From the IMG/VR virus record IMGVR_UViG_3300028888_001628, positions 32,001 through 96,000 of that record: a DNA stretch of 64,000 nucleotides; one strand, given 5' to 3'. Source of the DNA: a virus. Lineage: Duplodnaviria; Caudoviricetes. Below the pieces are notes generated by a model. That model searched no databases, was not told the origin of the DNA, and saw only the letters and a program-made list of their open reading frames with translations. Shown in pieces: positions 1,377-64,000 of this stretch (within the stretch, counting starts at the first letter, position 1; the number at the start of each line of letters is the position of its first letter). A program made the translations under genes and the position numbers.

Positions 1377-2378
1377 ATGCTTATGAAAGATAAATTAATC
1401 TCTCGTTTAAAAAAATTAGAACATAGAATTTCTCTATTAGAGTCTAAACAAGTTGGTATTTTGTATCATGTATGCACGCTAAATGCTTATCTTGACTATA
1501 TATTACCTGAAGATAAATTATCTGCATCTGGTAAATATATGAATTGGCTTTATGGTAGTAATTCTTATGTATCATTTACGCGTGATAGACGATTCGTTGT
1601 ACAAACCGATAATGTACAAGATTCTGATATTCTAGTGCAACTTGTTATTGATGGTGATAAGCTATCAGAGAAATATAAAGTAGGCCCATATAATGACTTC
1701 GCTTATGACTATGACGGAAATGAAATAGATGATAACGAGTTAGTTAAGTATAGAGAAAAAGAAGAAGTTGTTAGAGGACCCATTAAAAATATCTCTAGAT
1801 ATATAAAGAATGTTTATATTGACGCTAGGGATGCAAATAATAGTTCGATAGACAACCTTAAAGATCTCATTGAATTAAATCCGAGTGCAAAATATTTTAA
1901 TTTTATTAGTGGTAAAGACTCTGCGTTTGGTAATTTTATAAAATCACATGGCTTAAAAAATGGTGACTCTGTTAAAGACTGTCTAAATGTATTTACAGAA
2001 TATTATTATACTGTAATGAATAATCTATTTAGTGGTGATATACATAAGATAGAAATGGCTATGTGGGCTATGGAAGATGATTCGTCAAAAATAAATAAAG
2101 TGTATGGTGACAAAGGTACTTTATTGAATTACTACTGTGACAGTGATAAGAACACAGATATCGTAAAATTGTTGTTAAAGTACGGTGCTGATGCAAATGT
2201 ACAAAATAATAATGGTGATACTGCATTAATAATTGCAGCTAGAAGTGGAAGTCCTGATATAGTTAAACTTATCTTAAAAGCAGGTGTATATAGAGGTGAG
2301 GTAAATGATAAAGGTGAGACAGCATTTGATGTTGCAGCTACACCATACATAAAAGAACTGCTAGACAAAAAGAAATAG
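1377..2378 (+). CDS. Leader-tagged ADP-ribosyltransferase-like domain fused to C-terminal ankyrin repeats
   Basis: LEHRISLLE leader; LYH...VSFTR...EKEE (ART-type H, S-x-T, E-x-E); ankyrin motifs IVKLLLKYGADANVQNNNGDTALIIAA and KGETAFDVA. Confidence 0.65.
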   Translation: MLMKDKLISRLKKLEHRISLLESKQVGILYHVCTLNAYLDYILPEDKLSASGKYMNWLYGSNSYVSFTRDRRFVVQTDNVQDSDILVQLVIDGDKLSEKYKVGPYNDFAYDYDGNEIDDNELVKYREKEEVVRGPIKNISRYIKNVYIDARDANNSSIDNLKDLIELNPSAKYFNFISGKDSAFGNFIKSHGLKNGDSVKDCLNVFTEYYYTVMNNLFSGDIHKIEMAMWAMEDDSSKINKVYGDKGTLLNYYCDSDKNTDIVKLLLKYGADANVQNNNGDTALIIAARSGSPDIVKLILKAGVYRGEVNDKGETAFDVAATPYIKELLDKKK

Positions 2379-2399
2379 TTAATACAGAAAGCAAATCTA

Positions 2400-2440
2400 T
2401 TGTATATAAAACCTAGTATAATAATACTAGGTTTTATTTT
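2400..2440 (+). promoter_or_regulatory. TTGTATATA motif immediately followed by a 12-bp hairpin
   Basis: TTGTATATA 2400-2408; aaaacctagtat / atactaggtttt 2408-2435; same module recurs through the window. Confidence 0.6.
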
Positions 2441-2448
2441 TATAAAGA

Positions 2449-3522
2449 GTGGTTATGAACAGTGTTACTTATAATTACAGACCGCAGAATTTCTCAAGCA
2501 TAGTTGGTAATGAAATAAACAACAAACTGCTGTTAGAAATAGCAAGATCAGGTGGGCCTTCTACGTTAGTTCTTGCAGGTTCTTATGGTTGTGGCAAGAC
2601 TACATCAGCGAGGTGCTTTGCAAAAGCTGTTAATTGTGATCATCTTACAAATGACATCTGCTGTAAATGTGAATCATGTATGATGGATTTATCAAATAGC
2701 CCATTCTACAGTGAAATGGATTCATCTATAATAGGCAACGTAGATAATATTAGAGATCTATATGAAGATCTAACTTTTGTGCCTAGAGGTAAAAAGAGAG
2801 TGATAGTGTTTGATGAATGCCATTTGATTAGTAGGGCAGGTCAATCGGCATTATTAAAAGTATTTGAGGACGCGCCACCAAATATATACTATCTACTATG
2901 TACAACTAATAAAGACGCTTTACTTCCAACTATCATTTCAAGATCACTTACATTAGAGTTTAATACTAAATCTAAAGATGAAGTAATTAGTAACTTAAAG
3001 AAAATTTCTCTTGAGATGAATATCAATTTACCGGATAGTGTTGCAAGTTTAATAGCACTAAGATCGAAAGGTCATATGCGAGATGCACATAAACTTTTTG
3101 AGAAGTTTTTATTAATAGGTGAGAAGGATTTCTTAAACCTTGAAGAATCAGGCTATATTTATTTAGCAAAATATTTCGCACAGGTGCTATGGTTATTAAA
3201 GAATAATAGAGCCTCTTCAGAAGAGATCAAAAAGCACAAAGAAATAATGATAGAGATAGTTGATCGTTTAATGCGAATACCTATTGCATTATTAAAAGAT
3301 GATTATCAAAACTTATTTCTTGATCTTGCAAAGAAATGTTTTAATAGTGAATACAAAACAGAACCGATAATAGATGCAATAGTAAAACAGTTTGATGTAC
3401 GATCTATAATGAATCTGTACAAAGTTGCATTAGATGATTTCACAATGAGTTCTTTTGATAGTGATATAAGATTTCAAACTGCATTGCTGTCTACATATCA
3501 AAGATTGCTTATGGGGATATAG
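2449..3522 (+). CDS. dnaX: DNA polymerase III gamma/tau-like clamp loader subunit
   Basis: YRPQNF; Walker A GSYGCGKTT; zinc motif C...CCKCESC; DECH; SALLKVFED; TIISR; GHMRDA. Confidence 0.9.
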   Translation: MVMNSVTYNYRPQNFSSIVGNEINNKLLLEIARSGGPSTLVLAGSYGCGKTTSARCFAKAVNCDHLTNDICCKCESCMMDLSNSPFYSEMDSSIIGNVDNIRDLYEDLTFVPRGKKRVIVFDECHLISRAGQSALLKVFEDAPPNIYYLLCTTNKDALLPTIISRSLTLEFNTKSKDEVISNLKKISLEMNINLPDSVASLIALRSKGHMRDAHKLFEKFLLIGEKDFLNLEESGYIYLAKYFAQVLWLLKNNRASSEEIKKHKEIMIEIVDRLMRIPIALLKDDYQNLFLDLAKKCFNSEYKTEPIIDAIVKQFDVRSIMNLYKVALDDFTMSSFDSDIRFQTALLSTYQRLLMGI

Positions 3523-3526
3523 TTTT

Positions 3527-4234
3527 ATGAAAAGACATACTTTAGAGTATAGAATAGCTCGATTAGAGCGATATATAAAAAATGAATTTATAGATCAGTT
3601 CGACAAGCCTAAAAGATCAGAAGAAAAAGAATGGGTAAATGATTTATTCAGTAAATATAAATCGCTAAAAAGTAGTCTTACTACAAATTTAAATTCAGTA
3701 ACAGACACTAATAAAGATAGCCCATTTAATTTAATTTTATCATCTAAAGATAAGTGCATAGATTTTCTTATTACCTCAAAAGGTAATAGAGATGAGATGT
3801 CATGTACGGCTTTTAATAAGGGTGATAATGCAAAGATAGACTCACTGAAAAAATTTCATTTAAATAATGAAATTAACAAAGTTGCAGCATTTATCTTACA
3901 AACACTAAAGAGTCACAAATGTGAGAGTCGCAGTAGAAAGTTCGAAGAAGTATCGTTGACTGCACTTGACTGCCAATACATACTTAAGAGCGTTGATAGA
4001 TTACTTAGTGATATTTCAGATAACGCTTCTTCTAAAGTAGAAGACGATAACTCTGATTATGGATTTATTAATGTAGCTATATATAACCCTAACTATGTAA
4101 CGGACTACGATATTATCGCTCGTGATTATAATAAATTTGAAGTTATACACAACGATAAAAATATTCGCACAGTAAGTGATCTTAAGAAGGTTGCTGAAGT
4201 TGTTGTAAATGATTTTAGTAGCAATTATATGTGA
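3527..4234 (+). CDS. Leader-tagged hypothetical protein (putative internal head protein)
   Basis: N-terminal TLEYRIARLERYIKNE; internal ESRSRKFEE. Confidence 0.6.
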   Translation: MKRHTLEYRIARLERYIKNEFIDQFDKPKRSEEKEWVNDLFSKYKSLKSSLTTNLNSVTDTNKDSPFNLILSSKDKCIDFLITSKGNRDEMSCTAFNKGDNAKIDSLKKFHLNNEINKVAAFILQTLKSHKCESRSRKFEEVSLTALDCQYILKSVDRLLSDISDNASSKVEDDNSDYGFINVAIYNPNYVTDYDIIARDYNKFEVIHNDKNIRTVSDLKKVAEVVVNDFSSNYM

Positions 4235-4259
4235 TACTGATATTTAATAAATGCAAAAT

Positions 4260-4301
4260 AAAGTGTATATTATAACACATCATCGTTATAATATACACTT
4301 T
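4260..4301 (+). promoter_or_regulatory. 17-bp hairpin with TGTATAT-TATAA embedded in the stem
   Basis: aaagtgtatattataac / gttataatatacacttt. Confidence 0.6.
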
Positions 4302-4321
4302 TCTTTTATAAGGAACATTGT

Positions 4322-5020: not shown

Positions 5021-6268
5021 ATGAATGATAAAGAAGTAGAGAGTATAATATTAGCGGAACAGAGCAGACAGAAAAACACTCTTAGAATGATAGCATCTGA
5101 AAGTGAACCGTCTGACGATGTGCTAGAATGCCTTGGGTCATGTTTTACTTCAAAATATAGTGAGGGGTACCCAAATGGAACTAACAACCCAGCCGGCTTT
5201 CGTTACTACCAAGGACAAGAGAACACTAATAAGATTGAGAATCTTTGCATAGAACGTGCTAGAGAAGCTTTTAATTTACCTGACGATTGGCACGTTAACG
5301 TACAAGCGTTAAGTGGGTCACCTGCAAATATTGCTGTCTATACTGCGCTATGTAATATTGGTGATAAAGTTGTTGGCTTAGGGCTTAATTCTGGAGGGCA
5401 TTTAAGTCATGGTCATAAAGTTAATTTTACTGGAAAGAATTATGAAGTTCACCAGTTCGACGTTGATAAAGACACTCAACTAATTAACTATGACAAATTA
5501 AATGACTTTGTTTATAACGCAAGACCTAAGATGATGATTATTGGTACAACTGCATATAGTCGCGTTCTTGATTGGAAAAGATTAAGAGACATTGCAAATA
5601 AAGCAGGTTGTTACTTTGTAGCAGATGTTGCTCATGTTGCAGGTTTAATTGCAGGTGGTGCTTATCCGTCACCGGTCCCGTATGCAGATGTAGTTACTAT
5701 GACTACGCATAAAACACTGCGTGGACCTAGAGGCGCGCTTATATTTTGTAGAAATGAATTTGCTAAAAAGATCGATAGAGCTGTTTTCCCGGGCAACTCT
5801 GGTGGGCCACACATGAATAATATAGCTGGGATTGCAGTTGCTCTTAAAGAAGCTACTACAGAAGACTTTAAAGATTATGCACACCAGGTTGTTAAAAATG
5901 CAAAGTGCCTCGCCAATATTTTATGTAATATTTATGGGTTTAATATTATCTCAGGTGGGACAGACTCTCATTTGATGGTTGTAGATGTTACAAATAAAAA
6001 TATTGATGGGAAAACTGCAGCAATAGCACTTGAAAAAGCTGGCATAGAGTGTTCTTATTCTACTATCCCGTATGATCCTAATCCACCAGCAAATCCATCT
6101 GGGATTAGATTAGGTACTTCAATTTTAACTACACGTGGAATGAAGGAAGATGATATGAGCGTAGTTGCAGCTTATATCAATAAATCATTGGATAATTATA
6201 ATGATGATCAAGTCTTAGAGACTATAAAAGATTCTGTATCTAAATTTGTAAAACAATTTAATAAGTGA
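5021..6268 (+). CDS. glyA: Serine hydroxymethyltransferase
   Basis: KYSEGYP; NVQALSGSPAN; GGHLSHG; PLP-lysine motif TTHKTLRGPRG; GGTDSHL; SGIRLGT. Confidence 0.97.
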   Translation: MNDKEVESIILAEQSRQKNTLRMIASESEPSDDVLECLGSCFTSKYSEGYPNGTNNPAGFRYYQGQENTNKIENLCIERAREAFNLPDDWHVNVQALSGSPANIAVYTALCNIGDKVVGLGLNSGGHLSHGHKVNFTGKNYEVHQFDVDKDTQLINYDKLNDFVYNARPKMMIIGTTAYSRVLDWKRLRDIANKAGCYFVADVAHVAGLIAGGAYPSPVPYADVVTMTTHKTLRGPRGALIFCRNEFAKKIDRAVFPGNSGGPHMNNIAGIAVALKEATTEDFKDYAHQVVKNAKCLANILCNIYGFNIISGGTDSHLMVVDVTNKNIDGKTAAIALEKAGIECSYSTIPYDPNPPANPSGIRLGTSILTTRGMKEDDMSVVAAYINKSLDNYNDDQVLETIKDSVSKFVKQFNK

Positions 6269-6275: not shown

Positions 6276-7040
6276 ATGTTTAATAAGAAACACAAAATGC
6301 TAATTGAGCGACGTCTTTCACGTCTTGAAAAAGCTATTGATGAAGAAATTAAATTAGAAAATTTGTATGAATTTGAAGATGATATTGAGGACGATTTTGA
6401 TGAGTTTGAAGATGAGCTAGAAGATGATCTTGAAGATGATCTTGAAGATGATCTTGAAGATGAGCTTGATGATGATGAAGATGATATGTATGAATCTCGT
6501 CGTCGCAAATTAGAGCGGCGTGTTAGATTCTTAGAACGAAAACTTGCAGATGAAGGTATCCTTGACAGCATTAAAAATGTAGCCAACAAAATTTCTGGCA
6601 AAGCAGCTGATGCTAAATTATCTGCGAAAGAACTTGTTAGTAAACTAAAACTAGAACTTGAAACTATGGCACTCGGTATTACATCAAAGCTTGATGATGC
6701 TGTTGGAGCTTTTGATTGGGGTGATCCAATTATAAAATCAGGGTCTAATGGCATTGTGAGGTGTCGTATTGTAGGTGAAAATGGTAGTTTACCACACACA
6801 AAGCGTACTAAAGATAATGTAGGTATAGATTTAGAGGTTAATACAGACGGCGCTGATAAATTAAAAGATTGCGTTGTTAATTATGACGTGTATATTAATT
6901 CAAAAGCAACAACCGCTAGTGCACCAGATCCTATTAGTGATAGCAATAAATTACTTTCACTATTAAAACCAAACGAATGGAAAAAGATTGCACAATCTTT
7001 TAAACCTGTATTTAATAAGTACGTAGAAGACAATACTTAA
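6276..7040 (+). CDS. Doubly leader-tagged acidic protein (putative head/core protein)
   Basis: LIERRLSRLE, an acidic EDDL tract, then YESRRRKLERRVRFLE; GAGG RBS. Confidence 0.6.
   Translation: MFNKKHKMLIERRLSRLEKAIDEEIKLENLYEFEDDIEDDFDEFEDELEDDLEDDLEDDLEDELDDDEDDMYESRRRKLERRVRFLERKLADEGILDSIKNVANKISGKAADAKLSAKELVSKLKLELETMALGITSKLDDAVGAFDWGDPIIKSGSNGIVRCRIVGENGSLPHTKRTKDNVGIDLEVNTDGADKLKDCVVNYDVYINSKATTASAPDPISDSNKLLSLLKPNEWKKIAQSFKPVFNKYVEDNT
6408..6467 (+). repeat. Coding 12-bp tandem repeat (gaagatgatctt-like, 5 copies; EDDL/EDEL)
   Basis: Three exact copies at 6420-6455 plus two variant flanking copies. Confidence 0.9.
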
Positions 7041-7061: not shown

Positions 7062-7103
7062 AAGCCCTTAGATTTATTCTAAGGGCTTTATTTGTATATC
7101 TAA
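7062..7103 (+). terminator. Terminator hairpin followed by TTGTATATCTAA motif
   Basis: aagcccttaga / tctaagggctt; motif at 7092-7103. Confidence 0.65.
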
Positions 7104-7142: not shown

Positions 7143-7949
7143 ATGTTTGATTTGTATAATAAAATAAGTTCATCTATAAAAAATCTCTTTAGTAAGAAAG
7201 AAATTAAAACAGAAGTAAAAGATTTTCCAGTTGATAGTAATAATTCTGTAGAAATAAATGTAAACAAAGAACCTATAAATATTACTATTACAAAATCACA
7301 GTATGAGTACGCACATGGAAAACGCTTTAAGAATGGTCAGCCTAAGTGGATAGTTATTCATTATACAGCATGTGCAAATGTGTCAGCTAAATCTATGGCT
7401 AAAGCTATGAAGAATAATACAGGTGCGTCTTCTCATTTTTATATAGATGAGAAAGATATTTACTCTGCAGTACCGCTTGACTATATAGCTTGGCACGTTG
7501 GTGACGGTAAATGTAAACAGCCTTATGGTAAAAAACTATCATTATTAGAATTAAGTAAATCTAAATCTAATGATTGGCGATATGACTTAGCTGCTTCTAA
7601 TCACTTAAAATGGCAAAAAGAAAATGATGACTTCTTAGGGAATTCACAGTCAATTGGTGTTGACATTTGTGTTAAGAAAAAATCTACTAAAACGACAAAA
7701 GCAACTGACACTGATTGGTACTTTGAAGATAAGGCCATTGATAATCTTGCAAAAACTGTTGCTCATCTAATGCAAGAATATAATATAGACATAAATCATG
7801 TAATTAGGCACGGAGATGCGACAGGAAAGTTATGCCCTCGTCCGCTAATATCAATTTTATCAAATGAGGATAATGATAGTAAATGGGAAGCTTTTAAGGA
7901 AAAAGTTAGATATTACAGAGATAGAGGTGTTACTGCAAAGTGGAAATAA
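7143..7949 (+). CDS. N-acetylmuramoyl-L-alanine amidase (Amidase_2 family), probable endolysin
   Basis: WIVIHYTA; ASSHFYID; IAWHVGD; NSQSIGVDIC; VIRHGDATGKLCP. Confidence 0.9.
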   Translation: MFDLYNKISSSIKNLFSKKEIKTEVKDFPVDSNNSVEINVNKEPINITITKSQYEYAHGKRFKNGQPKWIVIHYTACANVSAKSMAKAMKNNTGASSHFYIDEKDIYSAVPLDYIAWHVGDGKCKQPYGKKLSLLELSKSKSNDWRYDLAASNHLKWQKENDDFLGNSQSIGVDICVKKKSTKTTKATDTDWYFEDKAIDNLAKTVAHLMQEYNIDINHVIRHGDATGKLCPRPLISILSNEDNDSKWEAFKEKVRYYRDRGVTAKWK

Positions 7950-10451: not shown

Positions 10452-10454
10452 TCA

Positions 10455-17692: not shown

Positions 17693-18691
17693 ATGAATAC
17701 AAGATTGTTAGAATATAGAATTTATAGATTAGAAAGACTTATCAATGAAGCCAAACAAGTTGGAACTCTGTATCATAACTGTTCAGCTGAGATAGCAGCT
17801 AAATATATTGTAAAAGATAATATACTTCAATCATCTGGAGCATATGTAAATAAGATCACAGGTACTACAGATATTGTATCATTTACAAGATTTAAACATA
17901 AAAAACTTCCTCATAATATCCTGTCATTGATAAACACTCCATTTATAGTTCGTTTTAGAGTAAATGGTGATAAACTATCTGAGAACTATAAAGTTTTTCC
18001 ATATAATGACTTTCCTGACGCTACAGGTAAGCTTGCTATGCTTAGTGATCAGCAAGAAGAGTGCGTCAAAGGACCTATTAAAAACTTTTCTAAATACGTA
18101 GAAAGCGTTGAATTTATCTTTAGTAGTGATATAAATATTGATTACTCTAATGATTCATACGCATCAGACAAAGGAAGAATAAATACATTTAATCAGATCG
18201 TTGATTGGTGTAATAAAAATAATATTGAATATGTTGTCGATAAAAAATATGCAGACTTTATAGATAAAGCAAAGAATGGTAAAGGTGATCCATACGAAGT
18301 TAGCCCTCATGTAAATGAAAGAAACACTCTTCGAACTTTAATTAGTAATATAGGTCTAAAAAGAATGGGCTTGCCAAATACATATAAGATAAACGGTGAT
18401 ATTTTTGGTTATGACAATGACAAGATTTACTTTGTCATGGAATACATAAATTCTGTAAAAGACCCAGCTGGGTATGTATCATTTGATGCGTACATTACTA
18501 ATTATAACACTCCAATACAATGTGAAGACACACCTGATGTAAGTGAGATTTGCAATAAAGCCAAGATAAATGCTAGTAAGTTTAGTGAAATGGACGACAA
18601 AGCTTTTATAAAATTTATTAAGAAATTACCAATAGCGTGTGGTATATCAAGAAAAGTTAAAAACGTAATGAATAAACTAGGATACGTTTAG
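17693..18691 (+). CDS. Leader-tagged ADP-ribosyltransferase-like protein, paralogue of 1377-2378
   Basis: LLEYRIYRLERLINE then AKQVGTLYH; VSFTR; GDKLSENYKVFPYNDF; QQEECVKGPIKN. Confidence 0.65.
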   Translation: MNTRLLEYRIYRLERLINEAKQVGTLYHNCSAEIAAKYIVKDNILQSSGAYVNKITGTTDIVSFTRFKHKKLPHNILSLINTPFIVRFRVNGDKLSENYKVFPYNDFPDATGKLAMLSDQQEECVKGPIKNFSKYVESVEFIFSSDINIDYSNDSYASDKGRINTFNQIVDWCNKNNIEYVVDKKYADFIDKAKNGKGDPYEVSPHVNERNTLRTLISNIGLKRMGLPNTYKINGDIFGYDNDKIYFVMEYINSVKDPAGYVSFDAYITNYNTPIQCEDTPDVSEICNKAKINASKFSEMDDKAFIKFIKKLPIACGISRKVKNVMNKLGYV

Positions 18692-30642: not shown

Positions 30643-32166
30643 ATGAGTTTAAAATCATTTTTTAAAAATCTATTTGGTTTAGGTCAAAAGATAGAAGTAA
30701 TAAAAGACACAACTGACTCACGTGATGATAAGTTAGAGAATTTATTTCTAAATAGAGATAATAACATTCTAACTTCATTACGTGATCTTTCAACTGATCG
30801 TCTCTCAAGAATCAAAGATTATCGTGAAATGATGAAAGACGGTATTACTCTTTCAGCAATCGAGCTTATCTCTGAAGACGCATCTCTGATAGATCAAGAC
30901 ATTGGTTTAGCTGCATGGATTGAGTCTTCAGATAATCCTGACTTTGCTGAAATGATGACAGATTTTCTAAAGAATAAATTACGCATTAACGATATTATTT
31001 ATCCTATTGCGTTTAATATAGTTGCGTTTGGTGAATGTTTTCTTAATACGAATTATTCTAATATAGCGTATCGAAAAGAATACAACGTAGGTGACTTTTT
31101 TACTATTGCTGAACCTGAAGACGTAGTTCATATTTATAGATTCGGTGTTCCATTAGGTTATTTATATAGACCACAAAGTACAGATAAGAATTCTATCGAT
31201 AGTGATAAGTTATTACCTGAGAGATCATTTATTCACTTCATTTCTGATAGAGCTAATCATGATTCTATCTCTGAAGATTCATATATTCAATATGGTGCAT
31301 CTTTTCTTGAGGCTGCAAGGCCTTATTATAAACAGAGACAGCTATTAGACGATCTTTTAATTCTTGCAAGATTAACAAGATCTTCTTTTTATAGACTGTT
31401 TTCTGTAGATGTTGGTGCTGCATCTTCACAAGATACTGCTCGTATGATGAGAGAGTTAAAGACAGCTATTTCATCAAAACAATCTATCAATGTTAGTACA
31501 GAGGTTTTTAGTTCAAGATCTTCACCTATTTTAACAGGTGGTAATGTTTATTTCCCAACTCGTAATGGTCAGGGTGCAGTAACAGTTCAAGAGGTTGGTG
31601 GTGAAGTTAACGTGTCAGCATTAGCTGATATTGATTATTTTGATGATCGCTATTATGGTGCGTTAAAGGTCCCTAAACAATTCTTAGGGCAGTCTGATGA
31701 AGCTCCTGGCGGATTAGGTGATACAACACTAACACAGTTAGACATTCGTTATGCAAGGACAGTAAAACGTTGTCAGCGAATTATTAAATCAGGTTTAAAA
31801 GATTTAATTTATTGGTTCTGCTCAATTCACAATATTCTTCCACCAAACTTTACAGTTGAAATGCCTCGCATATTAACTGCAGAAGACACGAGATTATCAG
31901 ATATTCAAAAGTCAGAAATTGAGGTTACAAATTCTATATTAGAACTTATCAAAGGTGTTGATGAAAACGCGTTAAATAATGCTGACAAAGCAAAGTTAAT
32001 GACAGCTTTGTTAAATAGAGTATCAAACGATGAGGACATTATTGATGCGTTGAATATTCATAAACTAAAACCAACTGATAACGGTAGCGGAAGTGAAAGT
32101 GAAGATACTTCATCTGAAGAAGAGGATTCTGGAGGCGGTGAGGAAGATTTTGATTTTAATATGTAG
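30643..32166 (+). CDS. Portal protein (T4 gp20-like)
   Basis: YREM; ARLTRSSFYRLFSVDVG; YFPTRNG; DIDYF...ALKVP; DIRYARTVKRCQ. Confidence 0.9.
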   Translation: MSLKSFFKNLFGLGQKIEVIKDTTDSRDDKLENLFLNRDNNILTSLRDLSTDRLSRIKDYREMMKDGITLSAIELISEDASLIDQDIGLAAWIESSDNPDFAEMMTDFLKNKLRINDIIYPIAFNIVAFGECFLNTNYSNIAYRKEYNVGDFFTIAEPEDVVHIYRFGVPLGYLYRPQSTDKNSIDSDKLLPERSFIHFISDRANHDSISEDSYIQYGASFLEAARPYYKQRQLLDDLLILARLTRSSFYRLFSVDVGAASSQDTARMMRELKTAISSKQSINVSTEVFSSRSSPILTGGNVYFPTRNGQGAVTVQEVGGEVNVSALADIDYFDDRYYGALKVPKQFLGQSDEAPGGLGDTTLTQLDIRYARTVKRCQRIIKSGLKDLIYWFCSIHNILPPNFTVEMPRILTAEDTRLSDIQKSEIEVTNSILELIKGVDENALNNADKAKLMTALLNRVSNDEDIIDALNIHKLKPTDNGSGSESEDTSSEEEDSGGGEEDFDFNM

Positions 32167-40543: not shown

Positions 40544-40622
40544 CTATATCTATAATAATATCTACTATAATGTAGTTGTTTGTATAAATTATTATTAACT
40601 AACTTTTATAAGGAAGGTAAAT

Positions 40623-41264: not shown

Positions 41265-41422
41265 TAGTTATTAGTGCTTAAATAATAAAGCATAGTATTA
41301 GAATTAAGTTTCTATACTATGCTTTTATTTTATCAAATAAATAATAGTATTTATATCTAATAATTTATTAGATAGCATATTATAATAAGTAAATTATCTA
41401 TATAATTATTTGGAGGCTCATT

Positions 41423-42406
41423 ATGAAAGTTTTTACTGAGTCTATTATATCAGAGATGAAACCTACTAAGGATTCAAATAAATCTGCAGGTACTTTATGT
41501 GTAATGACAGGTCCTTGTATGCAATTCGGTCAGGTCAATCGCAATAATCGTATCTATTCAAGAAAGCTTGTAGAAGATAGAATTCTTAATAACCCAACAG
41601 TACAAGAGACATTAAAGAATAGATCTATGTTGGGTGAAGGTGGTCATCCTGAAAACAGAGTAGACATTAGTTACCCAGAAGTAGCGCTTGCTGTAGAAAA
41701 ACTTTGGATTCCAGAAGGTAATGGTGATATGTTATGGGGACAGTTCGCAATCCTCGATACACCTACTGGAAGAATTCTAAATACACTAGTACAGTACGGA
41801 ACTAAATTAGGTATTTCTGCTAGAGCTGTCGCTGATTCATATCAAAAAGACGGTCATGAGATTATAGTTGAAAGTTCTTATGAGTTAATTACATTTGATG
41901 CAGTCCCCGAGCCTGGGTTTAAATGTGCTCGTCTAGAACAAGTAGATTCTGTATCAAAACCTGTAGATAAGATGTCAACAAAAGAATTGAAAGAATCCTC
42001 TGCAGCACTCAAATCATTTAAGAATCCTGTATTTGAATCAAGAATTCGTACATTAGATAAAGAGATCTGTAAACGTGAGCATAAAGCAGATATCCATTCT
42101 ATATTAGAATCAATGAATAAATTAGCAGAATCTCTAGATGGTTCATTCAATAAATTACAAAATATCAAATACGAAAAGAAATTAGCGTCTCTTATTACTG
42201 AAGCTAAATCTCTTATAAAAGATATTAAAACTACAACCACTAAAAATAATTCAATATCTAATATTTGTAGCGAAGATATTAGTATCAATAAATTTAGAGA
42301 TGATACTAAATTCAACGAATCAATAAATACAGATAATCTATTTAGTAATAAAGATATTTCTACATTAGAAAGAATGTGTTCAAATTTTAGGAGGAACTAT
42401 GAATAA
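41423..42406 (+). CDS. Prohead protease (T4 gp21-like) with long C-terminal helical extension
   Basis: NRNNRIYS; LGEGGHP; ILDTPTG; LGISARA; FDAVPEPG. Confidence 0.92.
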   Translation: MKVFTESIISEMKPTKDSNKSAGTLCVMTGPCMQFGQVNRNNRIYSRKLVEDRILNNPTVQETLKNRSMLGEGGHPENRVDISYPEVALAVEKLWIPEGNGDMLWGQFAILDTPTGRILNTLVQYGTKLGISARAVADSYQKDGHEIIVESSYELITFDAVPEPGFKCARLEQVDSVSKPVDKMSTKELKESSAALKSFKNPVFESRIRTLDKEICKREHKADIHSILESMNKLAESLDGSFNKLQNIKYEKKLASLITEAKSLIKDIKTTTTKNNSISNICSEDISINKFRDDTKFNESINTDNLFSNKDISTLERMCSNFRRNYE

Positions 42407-43874
42407 AGTTATGTTAGAAGCTTACAAAGATAAGATTAGCGTAGTTGAAAGTGTCCGTGGTGGTATGTCAGATGACGCCAAAAAGACACTTGCTCGCGTA
42501 TTAAATAATACAGATAATGCTCTCAATGATCTTCGTGCCATTAGTGGTATGAAGAATGAAAGCGTTTGCCGTGACACACCATCCTCACAGTACAGTGGTA
42601 TCGATTGGTTCCCTGAACACTCAATCGACATGGTCAGTGCTATCTATGCTTCACAGATTATCGATGACATCGTTTCAGTTCAGTCAATTGATTCACCTCT
42701 CGGTGTTATTCGTTTTCTACAGTACGTTTATGGTCAGGATCGTGGCGCTGCTAAACGTAATGGCGTTGCTATTGATCAGTGGGGTGCAATGCAAGGTGCC
42801 GCTCAGGGTAACTTTGTAGCTCGTGAGCGTATCGACGGTGAGCAGGTTAACGAAGCCACACAGAACACAACTGCACATACATGGACACTTAAAGGCTTTT
42901 GCCAGCATCTTCCACTTAAGCTCAACCCTGATAGTCCATTCATTTTGACAAATGAAGCCAATCAGAGGATGTACTACGTTCGCGCTTGTAAAGGTGGTTG
43001 GAAAGTTTCAGCCATCGATACAGATGGCACTGAAGAAGAGCTTGCTAACGCTACAGTATCGCTTCTTTCACCAGCTTCTGGTGAATTTGACATTGTGTTA
43101 CCAACAGATGAAGGTACTGCAACTGATACATGGTCAGTTTCATACTTCCAGGATCTAAGCGAAGTTCCTACAGATTCTATGAACCTTGAACTTCGTCTTC
43201 GTACTGAAATGATTAAAGCTGTTCCTCACAAAATCCGTGCTAACTTCTCATTTGATGCTTCCTATGCACTTTCTAAAGCTCACGGTATTAACGTTGAGGA
43301 ATCACTCGTTAATGCTTGCACCGCAGAAATTCGTCAGGAACGTGATAATGAAGTCATTGGCATTCTAATGCGTCAGGCTGGTAATCGCCGTGAATGGGAT
43401 CGTACAGTTACTTCCTACATTTCACAGCACGATCACGATATGAGTTTCCTTAATGAGATCTTTGCTTGTGCATCACTCATTAACTTCGAAACAAAACGTG
43501 GTTTTGGTAACTGGGTAGTTGTTGGTCGTCAGGGTCTCAACATTATTAGATCAGCTGGTTCTGATCACTTCAAAGCCGCAGGCGCTACACTTCCTAACAA
43601 TGGTGCATTCGTTGTTGGTGAACTCGAAAGTCAGATCAAGGTTATTTACTCACCATACGTTCCACAGGATTCATACCTCGTTGGTTACAAAGGTTCCGAT
43701 ATGGATGCTGGCTTCGTAGTTGCAGACTTCCTCCCAATTACAAAGACAGATCTAGTAATGCTTGATGATTTCGTTGGACGTCAGGGTCTCGTTTCCTATT
43801 ACGGAACTAAGATGTTAAATCCAAAAATGTATGTGGTAGGGAAGATTGTTGGTGGTGATCCTAATCTTCGTTAA
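42399..43874 (+). CDS. Major capsid protein (T4 gp23-like)
   Basis: IVSVQSIDSPLGVIRFL; AHGINVEESL...AEIRQERD; GNWVV; LVGYKG; codon usage distinct from neighbours, consistent with high expression. Confidence 0.93.
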   Translation: MNKVMLEAYKDKISVVESVRGGMSDDAKKTLARVLNNTDNALNDLRAISGMKNESVCRDTPSSQYSGIDWFPEHSIDMVSAIYASQIIDDIVSVQSIDSPLGVIRFLQYVYGQDRGAAKRNGVAIDQWGAMQGAAQGNFVARERIDGEQVNEATQNTTAHTWTLKGFCQHLPLKLNPDSPFILTNEANQRMYYVRACKGGWKVSAIDTDGTEEELANATVSLLSPASGEFDIVLPTDEGTATDTWSVSYFQDLSEVPTDSMNLELRLRTEMIKAVPHKIRANFSFDASYALSKAHGINVEESLVNACTAEIRQERDNEVIGILMRQAGNRREWDRTVTSYISQHDHDMSFLNEIFACASLINFETKRGFGNWVVVGRQGLNIIRSAGSDHFKAAGATLPNNGAFVVGELESQIKVIYSPYVPQDSYLVGYKGSDMDAGFVVADFLPITKTDLVMLDDFVGRQGLVSYYGTKMLNPKMYVVGKIVGGDPNLR

Positions 43875-44320: not shown

Positions 44321-44391
44321 ATAAAATACTGTATTTTTTGTATATCTATAGTTATAGTATATCAAAATAACCTATATGTGAGATCAGTATT

Positions 44392-45321
44392 ATGGCATCT
44401 ATAGATTGGAAAAAAGTTTGGGAATCAGCTCTAGCTAATAAAGAGATATTCCCTGTTAAGTTTATTAACAAAGATACAATCTCAGTCTCATGCCCTACAC
44501 GCTTTTCTAAATCAGGTGAATTATCAATAGAAATTACGCCTTTTTTTAACGAGGCTTCTATAGTTTTAGAACTACTTGTATTTAACGAAAATTTACTTCT
44601 TGATGAATTACCTTCTGAGAAAGAAGTTGATTCTGAGAAATCATCTACAGATGATTTTAACAGGTTAGTTGCAAGATTAGTTAAATACGAATTAGACAAT
44701 CGCATAATGGAAAGATTCAAGATTAAATCAAGTGGTTTTAAATCAGAGACTGAGGCAGAAAATACATTAGTCGATTATATAAATAGTAAAGCAACGGAGA
44801 GTGGGAGAATGTTTGACGATAAATTAGATGAGCTGAATGATTCTATTACAGCTAAAAAAGAAGAGAACTATTATCACATTCTAGAGTCTATTCGTAAAAA
44901 TAGATCATTTATTCTTAAGAAAGTAGAATCAATATTATTCAATAATTACAAATGGCACACTTCAAAGAATGAAGCTTACGATGATTCTACTGCATCTTTT
45001 TATGACGTGAATGGAAACTTATCAGCAGTCGTTTCATTAGTTGATAATTTTATTATAGTCGATCTTGCAAAAGGCGTTACAGCAAAAGTAAGTGCTATTC
45101 AATCTGACGAAGATATTGAAAAAGAACTTATTGATGATGTTGATGCTGCAAAAGAAGTAATGGCAAATAATGAAGTTAATCAGCTACGACAAGTTGTAGC
45201 TGATAATGAGCCTGAACCTGCAGATCCGCTTGATGATGAAGAAGACTATTTTGAATCTTTGTCACGTAGAATTACAAAACTAGAGAATCTATTTATCCGT
45301 CGTAAATTACGTAGACTATAA
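44392..45321 (+). CDS. Putative prohead core protein with C-terminal leader-like motif
   Basis: Ends FESLSRRITKLENLFIRRKLRRL; located in the head module. Confidence 0.55.
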   Translation: MASIDWKKVWESALANKEIFPVKFINKDTISVSCPTRFSKSGELSIEITPFFNEASIVLELLVFNENLLLDELPSEKEVDSEKSSTDDFNRLVARLVKYELDNRIMERFKIKSSGFKSETEAENTLVDYINSKATESGRMFDDKLDELNDSITAKKEENYYHILESIRKNRSFILKKVESILFNNYKWHTSKNEAYDDSTASFYDVNGNLSAVVSLVDNFIIVDLAKGVTAKVSAIQSDEDIEKELIDDVDAAKEVMANNEVNQLRQVVADNEPEPADPLDDEEDYFESLSRRITKLENLFIRRKLRRL

Positions 45322-46420: not shown

Positions 46421-46458
46421 ATAATATATAAACTTATTTTATAATAGAGGTGTTAATT

Positions 46459-46890
46459 ATGATGAGTCGTACTGATGAAATTAAAAACATTATGCGTCAA
46501 CTTCGTGAAAGCAAATCAGTTGAAGCTAAGAATGAATCACTAAAGAAAGTTAATGAAGAATCTGAAGCTGCTGACACAGAAAATGATACTTCTGAATCCG
46601 ATTTAATTCTTGCTCGCCTTGAAGATATTCTTGCTCGTTTTGAAAAAGTAATCGCGGCTGCAGATGGTGAAGAACCTACTGAAGACGAAGAAATGCCTGC
46701 CGAAGATGAAGAAGCACCTGCCGAAGATGAAGGTGGTGAAGACGAGGAAACATCTGCTGAAGAAGAGGGTGGTGAAGAGGAAGCCGCTGAAGAATCATTT
46801 GAACGATCTATTGAAAATCGTCTTGCTGCATTAGAACGTCGTTTTACAGAATCACGCCGTCGTCATCTCTGCCGTCGTTTTACTCGTTAA
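46459..46890 (+). CDS. Acidic putative scaffold/core protein with C-terminal leader-like motif
   Basis: Multiple sites LRES, KNES, VNEE; Glu-rich tract; ESFERSIENRLAALERRFTESRRR. Confidence 0.6.
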   Translation: MMSRTDEIKNIMRQLRESKSVEAKNESLKKVNEESEAADTENDTSESDLILARLEDILARFEKVIAAADGEEPTEDEEMPAEDEEAPAEDEGGEDEETSAEEEGGEEEAAEESFERSIENRLAALERRFTESRRRHLCRRFTR

Positions 46891-46915: not shown

Positions 46916-46966
46916 AAAGGTACCATTTAATATCTAACCATTAAATGGTACCTTTAACTGTATATA
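46916..46966 (+). terminator. 16-bp hairpin with TATCTAA at the loop, followed by CTGTATATA
   Basis: aaaggtaccatttaat / attaaatggtaccttt. Confidence 0.65.
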
Positions 46967-51617: not shown

Positions 51618-52460
51618 GTGATTATGATAAATTATCTTATCGATGTATCATGGCTTTTATATCGTGGCTTTTACGCTATGTCTCATGTGTATTCAGAATT
51701 TGCAGAACTTCACTATATAACAAAGAAATTAGAAAGTCTTCTTAGTAGAAAGGACGCAATTATTCATCTGTGTCTCGATGGGCGAGCTCCTAAAGGCAGA
51801 CGCTTGTTAGGTGAAAATTACAAAGCTGGTCGTCATCAAGAAGGTTCATATAGTGTATATAGTGGTTTAGCCACATTTATTCACTTACTACATAATGATA
51901 GAATAAATATCTATTATAATAATTATTATGAGTCTGACGAAATAATCTACACATTATCAAAGACTTTAGATGGAAGAAAGAAAATCTTATCAGGTGATAA
52001 AGATTTATTACAGTCACTTGATAAAGACACAGTAATAGAATCATTTAAAGGTCTTGTTACTACAGAAGAATCATATAAATATGAATATGCAGATCAGTTC
52101 TTTGGTATAGAACCTTGCAGGTTACCTATTTATAGAGCACTTACAGGTGATGCAAGTGATACTTTATATCCACCTGTAAAACGATTCCCTCATAAATTGG
52201 CCGCTAAGATCGCATCTGAAATACTATATAGTGGCAAATGCCCATCTGTAGAAGATCTTGATTCTATAAAAAAATCATTAAGTAAAACAGAACAGAAATG
52301 GGTAGACAGACTTATTGAGTCATACGATAAGTTTAGTACAAATTTCGACATAATGAAATTAAACATAATAACAGACTCACTTAATAACGATTATATCTAT
52401 ACAGATATTAAGTTAGATGACTTTCTTAAGTCAAAGATAGAGCGATTAAATACATTATAA
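51618..52460 (+). CDS. 5'-3' exonuclease / flap endonuclease (T4 RNase H / PolI N-terminal-like)
   Basis: IDVSWLLYR; YKAGR; ESDEII; SGDKDLLQ; ALTGDASD. Confidence 0.9.
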   Translation: MIMINYLIDVSWLLYRGFYAMSHVYSEFAELHYITKKLESLLSRKDAIIHLCLDGRAPKGRRLLGENYKAGRHQEGSYSVYSGLATFIHLLHNDRINIYYNNYYESDEIIYTLSKTLDGRKKILSGDKDLLQSLDKDTVIESFKGLVTTEESYKYEYADQFFGIEPCRLPIYRALTGDASDTLYPPVKRFPHKLAAKIASEILYSGKCPSVEDLDSIKKSLSKTEQKWVDRLIESYDKFSTNFDIMKLNIITDSLNNDYIYTDIKLDDFLKSKIERLNTL

Positions 52461-52475: not shown

Positions 52476-52739
52476 ATGGATAAGAAATTAGAAGCTCGAA
52501 TTGCTAAATTAGAAAGAATGATGAATCGTAAATCTGTTAAGAATGAGCGCCATGGATATGACACTATAAATAAGATTGATGCGGCAGCCGGTGAAGTTAA
52601 GAAGGCTACTCTTAAATTATATCGCCTTTTAGAAAATTTTGATGATGATGGTTTAATGGATATATTTTATAAACTTTCAGTAGCTGCTGATGAAATGCTT
52701 ACTGCTACTGGTGAAATTTTACACGAATACGATGATTAA
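52476..52739 (+). CDS. Small leader-tagged protein
   Basis: MDKKLEARIAKLE...VKNE; GGAGG RBS. Confidence 0.75.
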   Translation: MDKKLEARIAKLERMMNRKSVKNERHGYDTINKIDAAAGEVKKATLKLYRLLENFDDDGLMDIFYKLSVAADEMLTATGEILHEYDD

Positions 52740-52805: not shown

Positions 52806-53084
52806 ATGGATAAAAAATTAGAAGCTCGAATTGCTAAATTAGAAATAGTATTTAAAAGAAAGAATGAATCAACAGAAGATGAAGTAGCACATTCTATATA
52901 TGAAGCGTCTGATAAAATTAGACAGATTGTAAATGATCTATGTAAGACATTGGCATACAGTGATACATTTAATTATAAAGATGCAGATATGGCTCTTCAA
53001 ATTTGTGAGGATTCTTTTTCACAAGACGCGTATCGTAGATTGAGTTCCATTCTAAACGGTAGAATGAATGGTAAAAACTTTTAA
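52806..53084 (+). CDS. Small leader-tagged protein
   Basis: MDKKLEARIAKLE...RKNES; first 40 nt are 39/40 identical to those of 52476. Confidence 0.75.
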   Translation: MDKKLEARIAKLEIVFKRKNESTEDEVAHSIYEASDKIRQIVNDLCKTLAYSDTFNYKDADMALQICEDSFSQDAYRRLSSILNGRMNGKNF

Positions 53085-57657: not shown

Positions 57658-57697
57658 AATCACCAGTCTAATTAGACTGGTGATTACTTTATATCTA
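57658..57697. promoter_or_regulatory. Perfect 28-bp palindrome followed by TATATCTA
   Basis: aatcaccagtctaattagactggtgatt; motif at 57690-57697. Confidence 0.6.
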
Positions 57698-60771: not shown

Positions 60772-60793
60772 TAATATAACTAATTAAAATTCT

Positions 60794-60906: not shown

Positions 60907-61215
60907 ATGCAACTATCAGATACAATAGAATTCATGGTCTCAAAAGATTGGAAAGAAAGACTAAAGGCTGAATATTGGCAGACGATGATTCGTGCAGCTA
61001 ATCTAGAGAATTACATAAATCAAGATAACAAAACAGATTCATACGCTTCAGGTGTTGACTTGTTACTGTTGACAGTGCAGAGAGATATTATGTATTCTTA
61101 TTTAACATCTCTATATAATAGAATTATTACGCTTGGTTTGAAAGAATATGTTGATGATACTTCAGATATGTGTAGTGTTGAATCAGTGTGCACTTCAGAT
61201 AATACTAGTGAGTAA
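60907..61215 (+). CDS. crAss001_48-like small helical protein
   Basis: DWKERLKAEYWQ...LL..Q...M..Y...L..RI; AGGAGG RBS. Confidence 0.65.
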   Translation: MQLSDTIEFMVSKDWKERLKAEYWQTMIRAANLENYINQDNKTDSYASGVDLLLLTVQRDIMYSYLTSLYNRIITLGLKEYVDDTSDMCSVESVCTSDNTSE

Positions 61216-61220
61216 TTAAA

Positions 61221-61880
61221 ATGTCTTCTAATAATAACATAAACAGAATTGCATTACTATACAAAGACTTATTATCATCATCTATAAAGCCTCTTAGTGA
61301 ATCAGATAAATCTATACTATTAAATATACAACCAATAAATAAAGTAGTCGCAGTGGGTGATATAGATCTTTCTAACTGGAATGCATATGCTCTTACTTAC
61401 CTCTTACACAATAAATTAGTTGCCCCAGTTGTATTAGATGAATCAAAGATTTATCAATCATGGCACGCGATGCGAACACATAATGAGAAAGTGGCTCATC
61501 CACAAACACTTATAAGTCAAAGTGTTGTTATTAGAATAATTGGCCTTGATAATTCTGCAAACATAAATGACTATATAAATTCTTTTATAAATATGTGTAT
61601 AGCGTCAGATGAATGTAAGCTCATATTTGTAGTCGTAGATGGTAATAAGAAATTCTACAAAGATAATATTTATATTAGAAAATCAAACTCTACATTTATA
61701 GAGACTTCTACTGGAAAACCCTATACAGTTGAAAGTACGCCTTTATGTATTTCACCTGATCAGATAGTGTTCTTTAATAGTAATAAGAAATTACAATCAA
61801 AGTCTACAAAGACAAGACAGATATCTATTAAAAATAGTACATCATGCACTTCAATGTTAGACGATAAAGACTTATTCTAA
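61221..61880 (+). CDS. Hypothetical protein
   Basis: 219 aa ORF. Confidence 0.7.
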   Translation: MSSNNNINRIALLYKDLLSSSIKPLSESDKSILLNIQPINKVVAVGDIDLSNWNAYALTYLLHNKLVAPVVLDESKIYQSWHAMRTHNEKVAHPQTLISQSVVIRIIGLDNSANINDYINSFINMCIASDECKLIFVVVDGNKKFYKDNIYIRKSNSTFIETSTGKPYTVESTPLCISPDQIVFFNSNKKLQSKSTKTRQISIKNSTSCTSMLDDKDLF

Positions 61881-62935
61881 TGGGTTTACAGGCTATGAAA
61901 AATTTACATACATTTAAATATAGACGTTTATACACACTCGAAAGACGTATTAAAGAATTAGAAAGTTTACTATTAGAAGGTAAACGAGATCAAGAAATAT
62001 TAAATAATTTTTTAGGCGATGATTACTATAATAAATTTCAAACTATAAAGAATAAAATAAAAGACCCTGAGTACAAAGATATTTATAAAATAATTAAAAA
62101 GGATCCTGATGATGTAAAGAGTTATATTGACACTATACAATCTTCATCTGACAAGAGGCGTGAGGATAAGAAAGGTGCTCAATTACTATATGAAGATGAT
62201 GACTGGAAAGTATATAGAATAACAACTTACCCAGCAGCTCAATTATATGGAAAGAACACAAAGTGGTGTATTACTGGAAGATATCCTGGCGAGGAAGGTA
62301 AAGGTGAAGAATATTTTAATGATTATATAAATGATAACGATTTAGACGGTGGTTATTATTTTTATTTAAATAAAAAAGATCCATTTGAAAAATATTGCGT
62401 TCTTCAAAAAGATAATGGCAAAATACATTCTATCTGGGATGCGAGTGACTCTAAAAGAGGTTCGTTAAATATAAATATAGGCCTTCCAGAGATACCACAA
62501 GTGAATTTTATTAAATCAACATCAGTTGATTTTGGAGGGTATAAGTGGACTAAGATAGGAGAGTTAAATGGTCACTCTCTTTATCTGTGTTATGGAATAG
62601 TAAGAAATATGGCCTTTAATGATTCAAGTGAATCTAATAAATGGAGTGACTCTGACATTTGTAGATGGTTAAACTCTAATTTTTACAGTACTTTACTCCC
62701 TGATGAAAAGTCAAAAATTATTCCTTATAAAGGAGACAAACTATTCTTATTGTCTAAAGAAGAATATAGAAAATTTGAAAACAATATACCTATTATTGAT
62801 AAATCCTGGTGGCTTAGATCATCAAGCAATATGCTCAACTTTGCTGACTATATTAATTATGATGGTAATGTACGAATTTTCGAAGTCGACTCTGGTAGGA
62901 TAAGTGTCCGTCCAGCTGTTTTATTAGATGATTAA
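61880..62935 (+). CDS. Leader-tagged two-domain protein (G-x-x-TKWC/PcfJ-like domain plus DUF6273-like domain)
   Basis: TLERRIKELESLLLEG; YEDDDWKV...YGKNTKWCIT; WLNSNFY...LFLLS...WWLRS...VRPA. Confidence 0.65.
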   Translation: MGLQAMKNLHTFKYRRLYTLERRIKELESLLLEGKRDQEILNNFLGDDYYNKFQTIKNKIKDPEYKDIYKIIKKDPDDVKSYIDTIQSSSDKRREDKKGAQLLYEDDDWKVYRITTYPAAQLYGKNTKWCITGRYPGEEGKGEEYFNDYINDNDLDGGYYFYLNKKDPFEKYCVLQKDNGKIHSIWDASDSKRGSLNINIGLPEIPQVNFIKSTSVDFGGYKWTKIGELNGHSLYLCYGIVRNMAFNDSSESNKWSDSDICRWLNSNFYSTLLPDEKSKIIPYKGDKLFLLSKEEYRKFENNIPIIDKSWWLRSSSNMLNFADYINYDGNVRIFEVDSGRISVRPAVLLDD

Positions 62936-62965
62936 GATCTGTTTTAGATATAATGAGGTTAAAAT

Positions 62966-63637
62966 ATGAATCATAAATTAGAAAATCGAATAGCTCGTCT
63001 TGAACGTATTATTAAAAATGAAAAACACAGATTTAAATCTAAATATGTTTATGAGGCTGAACAACAGTCTAATAACAGGATTGAATTAGGTGGTTACACA
63101 TGGACAAAAATAGGAAATATGAAAGGCTATCCTATTTATTTGTGTGATGAGTTTGTACAGTTGATGGCTTTTGATGGAAGAGAAGAATCAAATGATTGGG
63201 AAGACTCTGATATTCGTAAATGGTTAAATTCTGGTTTTTACAATACTCTATCTACAGAAGAGAAATCTGAGATTTCTCCTTTTGAAGGTGATAGATTGTT
63301 TTTATTGTCTGAAGATGAATATGAAAAGTTTAAGGGTAATATATCTAAGATGAATAATTGGTGGTGGCTCAGAACGTCACTTCCAGATTCAAGTAGTGCT
63401 GTTGCGTTTGTTCATCGAGATGGTGATATTGATTATACATATGCTAACTACCCAAAAGCTGGTGTTCGCCCTGCTGTTTTATTAAACGTAGTAGATAGGG
63501 AAAAATTAGACCAGCTGTTAGATAAAATTAGGGATGCTTACGCAAACTACAAGTCACTATGCAATGATTTTATTGATGAGGGTGGTGATGAAGATGAAAT
63601 TGATGGTATCATCCATGATATAAATCAAGTTCTATAA
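62966..63637 (+). CDS. Leader-tagged DUF6273-like protein
   Basis: KLENRIARLERIIKNE; GGYTWTKIG...WLNSGFY...WWWLRT...GVRPA. Confidence 0.7.
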   Translation: MNHKLENRIARLERIIKNEKHRFKSKYVYEAEQQSNNRIELGGYTWTKIGNMKGYPIYLCDEFVQLMAFDGREESNDWEDSDIRKWLNSGFYNTLSTEEKSEISPFEGDRLFLLSEDEYEKFKGNISKMNNWWWLRTSLPDSSSAVAFVHRDGDIDYTYANYPKAGVRPAVLLNVVDREKLDQLLDKIRDAYANYKSLCNDFIDEGGDEDEIDGIIHDINQVL

Positions 63638-63712
63638 TATAAAAATAGAAAAGTATATAAATTTTATAAATATATAATTGTATATTATTTAAATAAAATT
63701 ATGAGGTAAGTT

Positions 63713-64000
63713 ATGATTAAAAGAAAAGCTACTTTAGAACAACGTATTAGTCGTCTTGAACGTGCATTACGAAAGAATGAAGGTTTTGGTTATAGATTAA
63801 AACCAGGTGATGTAGTTGAAGATGTGGACGGGAGAACAGGTGTTGTTGCTGCAGTTGGCCTAGCTGGAAATCTGTTTAAGAAATTTAGATCTAGATTATG
63901 TGATAGCAGTATTGATGAGATTATGGATCTTATGAGTGAAGATCCAAGTTGGGAATCAATTAGCGATTGTGTTGTAGTTTGTTATGATGACACATCTGAT
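63713..64000 (+). CDS. Leader-tagged protein (partial, runs off the window)
   Basis: MIKRKATLEQRISRLERALRKNEGFGYRLKPGDVV...; GAGG RBS; TTGTATAT at 63678. Confidence 0.8.
   Translation, partial: MIKRKATLEQRISRLERALRKNEGFGYRLKPGDVVEDVDGRTGVVAAVGLAGNLFKKFRSRLCDSSIDEIMDLMSEDPSWESISDCVVVCYDDTSD

Follow-up and report, generated by a model that had tools for sequence, protein, structure and literature searches.

A modular leader peptide, shared with two head-core proteins, as a candidate capsid-targeting propeptide in an uncultured gp23-type phage

Introduction

For decades, foreign proteins have been loaded into phage heads by means of the capsid-targeting sequence (CTS) of bacteriophage T4. The present study concerns a leader peptide that may serve a similar purpose in an uncultured tailed phage. 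It was found in a window of 64,000 nt (the whole stretch of DNA that was analysed) corresponding to bases 32001–96000 of the 155,974-bp IMG/VR contig IMGVR_UViG_3300028888_001628, which carries 197 open reading frames (ORFs). The leader is borne by at least 19 of the proteins that this 156-kb fragment encodes, or about one in ten of its genes, and combines a short amphipathic motif with a nearby x-x-Glu site. It is likely to be a targeting propeptide of the T4 CTS kind ('target, then clip'), and its motif recurs at the C-termini of two conserved proteins of the head module.

The prohead protease of T4, gp21, cleaves after L/I-x-E, and the 10-residue CTS, the logic of which has been in print since 1996, loads the proteins IPI–III as well as foreign proteins, and still does so with Asp at position 10 (PMC9026906). 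The phage described here resembles T4 in having a short N-terminal leader ending in x-x-Glu on unrelated, fast-evolving proteins, as do IPI, IPII and IPIII with their CTS and Alt with its propeptide. It also shares with T4 a protease of the gp21 (S77) type, a gp23-type capsid protein bearing an N-terminal propeptide, the presence of several sites in core proteins, and a likely C-terminal propeptide of the protease. The differences are equally clear. The T4 leader has 10 residues, while that of the present phage has 17–33, with a 12-residue heptad-like core; the site is L/I-x-E in T4 and preferentially [VRI]-K-N-E here; T4 has four carriers compared to about 19 on a partial genome; and the mature bodies are mostly acidic, whereas the T4 internal proteins are basic. 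In the present phage the motif also occurs as a C-terminal or internal module, and its position at the end of two head-core proteins hints at a docking partner, while the partner of the T4 CTS is not defined. The initial annotation of this DNA had proposed a tag different from that of T4, which is appropriate for its sequence and its likely helical nature, but the logic (a leader, a Glu-specific clip and a gp21-type protease) is T4's own.

The gp21 relatives of phiKZ and SPN3US cut after S/A/G-x-E (PMC10052503, PMC9026906). In these phages and in 201phi2-1, as is predicted here, many head proteins are cut after Glu by a diverged gp21-like protease with a C-terminal propeptide, and the head contains a large protein cargo. 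Their propeptides, however, are mostly 111–254 residues in length, they use the S/A/G-x-E motif, and no shared leader has been reported (PMC10052503, PMC9026906). The capsid protein and protease of the present phage are nearer to those of T4 and SP-15-type phages than to those of the giant phages.

Occurrence of the leader motif

The initial annotation had listed N-terminal copies of the motif in nine proteins of the window, and every one of them is present (Table 1; genes are named here by the first nucleotide of their ORF). A scan of the proteome with shuffled controls had been set beforehand as the test of this pattern. Over the whole contig, the loose form of the motif, [LIF][ES]xR[ILV]xxL[ED], occurs 22 times compared to 0.165 expected (1000 shuffles, maximum 3), and the strict form, LExR[ILV]xxLE, occurs 18 times compared to 0.014. 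Sixteen of the 22 copies lie within the first 25 residues of their proteins (the N-terminal 33 residues make up 13.5% of all residues), so that the motif is both enriched and N-terminally placed. A profile hidden Markov model (HMM) adds three ankyrin paralogues situated just upstream of the window, which have the variant LxKRLEKLE. The full set of carriers includes four ankyrin-repeat proteins and two with a DUF6273 domain.

The nine tagged proteins of the window had been credited with at least seven unrelated bodies, a figure that proved slightly too high, as BLAST distinguishes six or seven families. Genes 1377 and 17693 are paralogous, as are 61880 and 62966, and the relationship between 52476 and 52806 is doubtful. 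Ankyrin repeats and DUF6273 are the identified bodies, the remainder matching no family. The wider proposal of a modular leader carried by many unrelated bodies is borne out at the protein level. A further statement, that the tag is absent from replication and metabolic enzymes, has to be qualified, since a nucleotidyltransferase protein of the Pol-beta type encoded by this genome contains the motif internally, and a cytidylyltransferase-like protein ends in it in two relatives. The latter protein (PF01467, 2e-6; N-terminal GRFQPFTxGH) terminates in LQ[YF]R[VI]AKLERLLNI (L055:3280–3900 (+); G001, 179818–180435), and has no orthologue on the present contig.

Among the various copies, the invariant Leu, Glu and Arg are encoded by differing codons, and the DNA upstream of the tagged ORFs shows no conservation. 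Because the codons vary and the upstream DNA is unlike, selection must act on the peptide; a reading of the motif as a DNA repeat was ruled out by the codon variety. The leaders of 52476 and 52806 are near-identical at the DNA level over about 40 nt, and on this evidence are a recent copy. Copying of this sort would suit a mobile 5' DNA cassette (a ribosome-binding site plus first codons), spread by recombination and specifying a peptide without function. The different codons and unconserved upstream DNA of the other copies, together with the retention of the peptide across 130 metagenome clusters and at protein C-termini (see below), make such a cassette a highly implausible source of the leader.

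Leader structure and predicted cleavage site

The consensus of 34 N-terminal leaders, taken from this genome and two relatives, is (M)-[DN]-K-K-L1-E2-x-R4-[IV]5-[AS]6-[RK]7-L8-E9-[RK]10-h11-h12 (h, hydrophobic). In the consensus of the whole leader, this core is followed after 1–8 residues by [VRI]-K-N-E and then S, D, G or A. Positions L1, E2, R4, L8 and E9 are practically invariant. The hydrophobic positions 1, 5, 8 and 12 have heptad spacing, although the conserved stretch covers only about 1.5 heptads. Heptad hydrophobics accompanied by charged e and g positions that are able to pair, as in a zipper, are found in the leaders and also at the C-termini of two head proteins (see below). If L1 is taken as 'd', R4 would occupy 'g' and E9 'e', five residues apart, which is the inter-helix salt-bridge geometry of parallel zippers.

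The dipeptide NE occurs 5–13 residues after E9 in 22 of the 34 leaders, compared to 10–14% of control stretches (binomial 6e-16), and the remaining leaders have IFE, VYE, ILE, MIE, IDE, LLE or ICE 3–6 residues after E9. Cleavage at these positions would release propeptides of 17–33 residues with an isoelectric point (pI) near 10, leaving mature parts that are mostly acidic (pI 4–5.7). The leaders of 1377, 17693 and G001_100243 (a protein of one of the relatives) differ in length and sequence, yet all of them end in x-x-E directly before a conserved (S/A)KQVG. Of the 15 KNE tripeptides in the proteome, 8 follow a leader, and the others include those of the major capsid protein (MCP; residues 52–54), a scaffold-like protein (27–29), a 309-aa head-module protein (192–194) and ORF 122 (7–9). 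The KNE sites of the head proteins are kept in orthologues with 47–83% identity. The proposal that the leader is followed by an xxE site is thus well founded: a conserved x-N-E or h-x-E comes after the leader, and the same KNE is present at the expected maturation point of the MCP and in two other head proteins. A supposed depletion of KNE outside the substrates was dropped, as the total count is ordinary and relative G001 is without depletion.

A helix of this type could act simply by self-association, as a short zipper joining cytoplasmic infection proteins, with KNE as a part of the motif and no packaging. The heptad-like L1, I5, L8 and h12 and the invariant E2, R4 and E9 are in keeping with this, the tagged genes are scattered among non-structural genes, and many of the bodies are small, acidic and helical, as anti-defence proteins often are. 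Twelve residues, however, are too few for a stable zipper alone. Self-association would also leave unexplained why KNE is conserved at the MCP maturation point and in the core proteins, why body homology starts exactly after x-x-E, and why head-module proteins are the only other carriers of the motif, and it is considered improbable.

ORF 122 lacks the helical motif, and its 9-residue leader (Table 1) may represent a second, short class of protease substrate that is nearer in length to the T4 CTS.

Leaders in relatives and metagenomes

Four related IMG/VR contigs, with MCPs 69–82% identical to that of the window phage, carry 3–15 leaders each. Their head genes are 62–83% identical, while their tagged proteins are 35–67% identical, absent or rearranged. 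Orthologues of 3527 in G001 and G003 retain the leader and KNE at a body identity of 37–42%, and in G003 a nucleotidyltransferase domain, an internal leader and a body of the 61880 type are fused in one protein. A second scan of IMG/VR, made with an MCP alignment, recovered the same small clade only. The search that found 3–15 leaders in these uncultured relatives found none in the nearest cultured relatives, SP-15, LIS04, HSE3 and GXN1. A tblastn search of 50,697 phage records with a tagged protein gave matches at chance level only, and searching the literature for the strings of the motif gave unrelated papers only.

A profile of the small tagged family (seed 52476) was compared to 1.84 billion metagenome proteins (E <= 1e-3), and matched 130 cluster representatives. 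The motif is present in 120 of these, within the first 15 residues in 107, and NE occurs within 18 residues in 109. The bodies of 91 of them fall into 64 BLAST groups. Positions P4–P1 are mostly [VRI]-K-N-E, with S, D, G or A at P1', and the spacing from motif to site is 8 or 11 residues in 76 of 99 leaders. One match lies on a syntenic 234-kb scaffold.

In eight of the metagenome proteins (P0020, P0023, P0038, P0060, P0074, P0107, P0111 and P0118) the entire leader, including MDKK, lies inside a longer protein, often after ELNSRNGDxN. Judging by their sequences, they have the appearance of adjacent genes fused in frame, or of polyproteins jointed by protease sites. Ankyrin repeats were seen in ten tagged proteins over three genomes (1377–2378; L002:8798–14088; L049:2860–6442; L051:9297–9707; L053:9861–12856; L055:7480–8928), and would be an unusual cargo for a phage head.

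Prohead protease, capsid protein and core proteins

The prohead protease is encoded beside the capsid gene, and is assigned to the gp21 family by PF03420, phrog_207 and PDB 5JBL (scores in Table 1). It has a C-terminal extension of about 130 aa, in which a conserved FNE (residues 297–299) lies 28 residues from the end. The arrangement is reminiscent of gp21-type proteases, which process their own C-termini, and a C-terminal propeptide is likely by analogy. In the MCP, the sequence MKNE-S is present at residues 51–55, as had been noted. The KNE is encoded by nt 42552–42560, and its N53 and E54 do not vary among 6 relatives. In an alignment with mature T4 gp23*, residue 78 of the MCP corresponds to gp23* residue 33, and on this basis the mature N-terminus of the MCP is placed near residues 46–55, making KNE 52–54 the predicted maturation cut. 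A conserved Glu-ended site together with a gp21-type protease is a simpler account of the leader than recognition by a dedicated modifying enzyme or chaperone; no partner enzyme is seen beside the tagged genes, which lie at a dozen separate places on the contig, and that explanation is regarded as very unlikely.

The first of the two head proteins that end in the motif (46450, Table 1) is highly acidic, helical and scaffold-like. The block at its C-terminus, S[LI]ExRLAALERRFTESRRR, does not vary among 6 relatives, and there are 1–3 KNE sites near the N-terminus. An AlphaFold2 model has helices at residues 7–42, 46–71 and 107–145, the acidic residues 72–106 being disordered. The protein belongs to no Pfam or PHROG family, and a protein atlas search gave no named relative. 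The C-terminal helices of scaffolding proteins bind coat protein, an example being gp8 of phage P22. Protein 46450 resembles gp8 in being acidic and helical, with a conserved amphipathic C-terminal helix and a basic tail; it differs in that there is no sequence or family match, and in the re-use of the helix motif as a portable cargo leader. Another tagged protein, 6276–7040, has motifs flanking a 40-residue Asp/Glu run, a layout like that of the scaffold-like protein, and it might belong to the core instead of being cargo.

The second is the conserved 309-aa protein, 44392. Its KNE and the C-terminal LE[RK]R[LIV]xxLES[LM]YIxRKLxx are present in 120 of the 120 homologues listed (all at least 53% identical), the LSRRITKLE of the window being a minor variant of this canonical C-terminus. 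The model of the protein (mean predicted local distance difference test, pLDDT, 74.5) consists of two alpha/beta modules with the conserved KNE between them. Fold searches with it produced nothing at E <= 1e-3. The highest VIA Z was 6.8, and the likeness to type III secretion chaperones and to the PI31 FP domain (Z 5–6.8) was discarded as weak and within the background range.

An HMM built from the C-termini of these two head proteins only was run against the proteome of this phage, and its next matches were 14 cargo leaders, with nothing else at E < 0.06. Reciprocally, the leader HMM matches both C-termini. The annotation's suggestion that the scaffold carries the same motif as the cargo is therefore confirmed by profile searches in both directions. 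Of the motif variants that had been reported near the C-termini of head-module proteins, those of 44392 and 46450 stand, while that of the protease, FESRIRTLD (residue 204), fits the loose pattern only and was retrieved by neither profile HMM. Judged from these profiles, the cargo leaders have one module in common with the core proteins, consisting of an amphipathic helix and a basic stretch, and this is the feature that most distinguishes the system.

The narrow spacing of motif and site (8 or 11 residues in most metagenome leaders, 5–13 in the three genomes) suggests that the two are read jointly, and raises the question of whether the leader only presents KNE to the prohead protease, or to some other Glu-specific protease, with capsid loading dependent on something else. 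The KNE sites of the MCP, the scaffold-like protein and the 309-aa protein are conserved without an upstream motif, however, so the motif is dispensable for the site, and the C-terminal motifs, which have no site after them, are more in keeping with a module for binding than with a guide for cleavage. A role limited to guiding the protease is consequently judged unlikely.

Proposed mechanism

Under the favoured interpretation, that of a T4-like targeting propeptide, the leader would hold the cargo protein in the assembling prohead core until a gp21-type prohead protease cleaves it after Glu, at (K)NE or at hydrophobic-x-E. The cut would free the mostly acidic mature protein, which would remain inside the head and may be delivered into the host along with the DNA. 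Each of these steps, from packaging and cleavage to ejection, is inferred from sequence, as is the docking partner. Because two conserved head proteins end with the same motif and a basic tail, a single docking contact probably serves the cargo leaders and the core proteins alike, whether they pair with each other or both bind to a common site of the prohead. Homotypic pairing of the leader with the C-terminal helices of the core proteins, as in a zipper, is plausible. Alternatively, there might be a common receptor, such as the conserved helical propeptide of the MCP, or the basic leader might be held electrostatically on the acidic scaffold. A more specific and rather speculative possibility is that the leader copies the assembly helix by which the scaffold-like and 309-aa proteins dock, in which case a protein with the tag at either end, or between modules, would be co-assembled and then released by the K-N-E cut.

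A sequence element, (T)ATATCTA, was noticed at 7096–7102, 40546–40564, 41353–41359, 44342–44348, 46930–46936, 52393–52399, 57691–57697 and other positions. It lies 33–83 nt upstream of the genes for the endolysin, the protease, 40623, 44392 and others, and precedes 7 of 19 tagged genes compared to 15 of 178 other genes (Fisher 0.0017). Its distribution suggests a candidate late promoter element, and that the tagged genes are co-expressed with late genes.

Several points weigh against a capsid-targeting propeptide. The phage is uncultured, and the leader occurs in no cultured phage. By eye, the leader has no sequence likeness to the T4 CTS, MKTYQEFIAE (PMC9026906). The tagged genes sit among replication and metabolic genes, outside the head module, and the promoter role of the ATATCTA box is only putative. 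The total number of KNE tripeptides is ordinary (15 compared to 16.4 in shuffles), only their placement being unusual; some leaders are without NE, and h-x-E sites are a weak motif; and the tagged proteins −7869 and 92473 have no clear site. The cleavage specificity of the protease is deduced from conserved sites only, and 46450 is termed scaffold-like, as a possible scaffold or prohead-core protein, on the basis of composition, position and predicted helices. Each of the rival explanations nevertheless explains less, and none of them covers both the conservation of KNE in capsid and core proteins and the presence of the motif at the core C-termini.

Genome setting

The contig has a CheckV completeness of 68%, which indicates a genome of about 230 kb. 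The G+C content is 31%, and the + strand carries almost every gene. The closest cultured phages are those of the SP-15 group (Bacillus SP-15, Listeria LIS04, Bacillus HSE3 and Streptococcus GXN1), with a capsid identity of about 31%, and a megablast comparison of the head module with cultured phages gave no match. Besides the features of Table 1, the window carries genes for helicases and a clamp-loader subunit. A full-length serine hydroxymethyltransferase gene (5021–6268; PF00464, 1.8e-142) adjoins tagged genes. In the syntenic 234-kb relative, an 894-aa gene containing an intein (L073:13114–15798; Intein_splicing and LAGLIDADG_3) is found where the window has a DnaB-like helicase region.

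Table 1. Coordinates of the tagged proteins, head-module proteins and other features of the window. Motif start is the first residue of the leader motif or its variant.
Feature	Position (strand)	Length (aa)	Motif start (aa)	Remarks
Ankyrin-repeat tagged cargo	1377..2378 (+)	333	14	LEHRISLLE, residues 14–22; predicted cut after LLE, before SKQVG; Ank_2 1.1e-13
Tagged cargo, family not matched	3527..4234 (+)	235	6	Leader MKRHTLEYRIARLERYIKNE, then F
Tagged protein	6276..7040 (+)	254	10, 79	Two motif copies flanking a long acidic run
Tagged cargo, paralogue of 1377	17693..18691 (+)	332	6	Leader MNTRLLEYRIYRLERLINE, then AKQVG
Small tagged cargo	52476..52739 (+)	87	5	Leader MDKKLEARIAKLERMMNRKSVKNE, then 63-aa acidic body; seed of metagenome profile
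Small tagged cargo	52806..53084 (+)	92	5	Leader MDKKLEARIAKLEIVFKRKNE
Tagged cargo, DUF6273 domain	61880..62935 (+)	351	20	Predicted cut after LLLE
Tagged cargo, DUF6273 domain	62966..63637 (+)	223	5	Leader MNHKLENRIARLERIIKNE
Tagged cargo running past window end	63713..64000 (+)	115 (in contig)	8	Leader MIKRKATLEQRISRLERALRKNE
Protein with short leader, no family	122..1330 (+)	402		9-residue leader MKYKIVKNE, then S; without helical motif; KNE kept in 61%-identical orthologue
Prohead protease, T4 gp21 / Peptidase_S77 family	41423..42406 (+)	327		PF03420 5.1e-13 (above cut-off); phrog_207 1.2e-39; PDB 5JBL 3e-4
Major capsid protein, gp23 family	42399..43874 (+)	491		PF07068 7.4e-35, starting at residue 75
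Conserved head-module protein	44392..45321 (+)	309	290	Invariant KNE at about residue 193 (192–194); C-terminal LSRRITKLE (nt 45259–45285) and basic tail
Scaffold-like protein, acidic, helical	46450..46890 (+)	146	121	KNE 27–29; C-terminal IENRLAALE (nt 46810–46836) and Arg-rich tail
Portal	30643–32166			
Endolysin	7143–7949			

Implications

The system is new in its 12-residue helical core, in its K-N-E site, in the scale and metagenome spread of the leader, in its ankyrin-rich cargo and, above all, in the re-use of the terminal motif of the core proteins. The motif shared by the leader and two head-core proteins provides a concrete candidate for the docking contact. Should the leader indeed copy the assembly helix of the core proteins, this would be the first naming of the receptor side of a capsid-targeting signal, and the leader would be the portable loading tag of an abundant uncultured clade, delivering ankyrin-repeat proteins and enzymes. 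The large and fast-changing set of probably injected proteins (ankyrin-repeat, DUF6273 and small acidic proteins) are candidate host-takeover or anti-defence factors. If the targeting role is correct, the leader would constitute a second, independent tag for the loading of proteins into gp23-type capsids.

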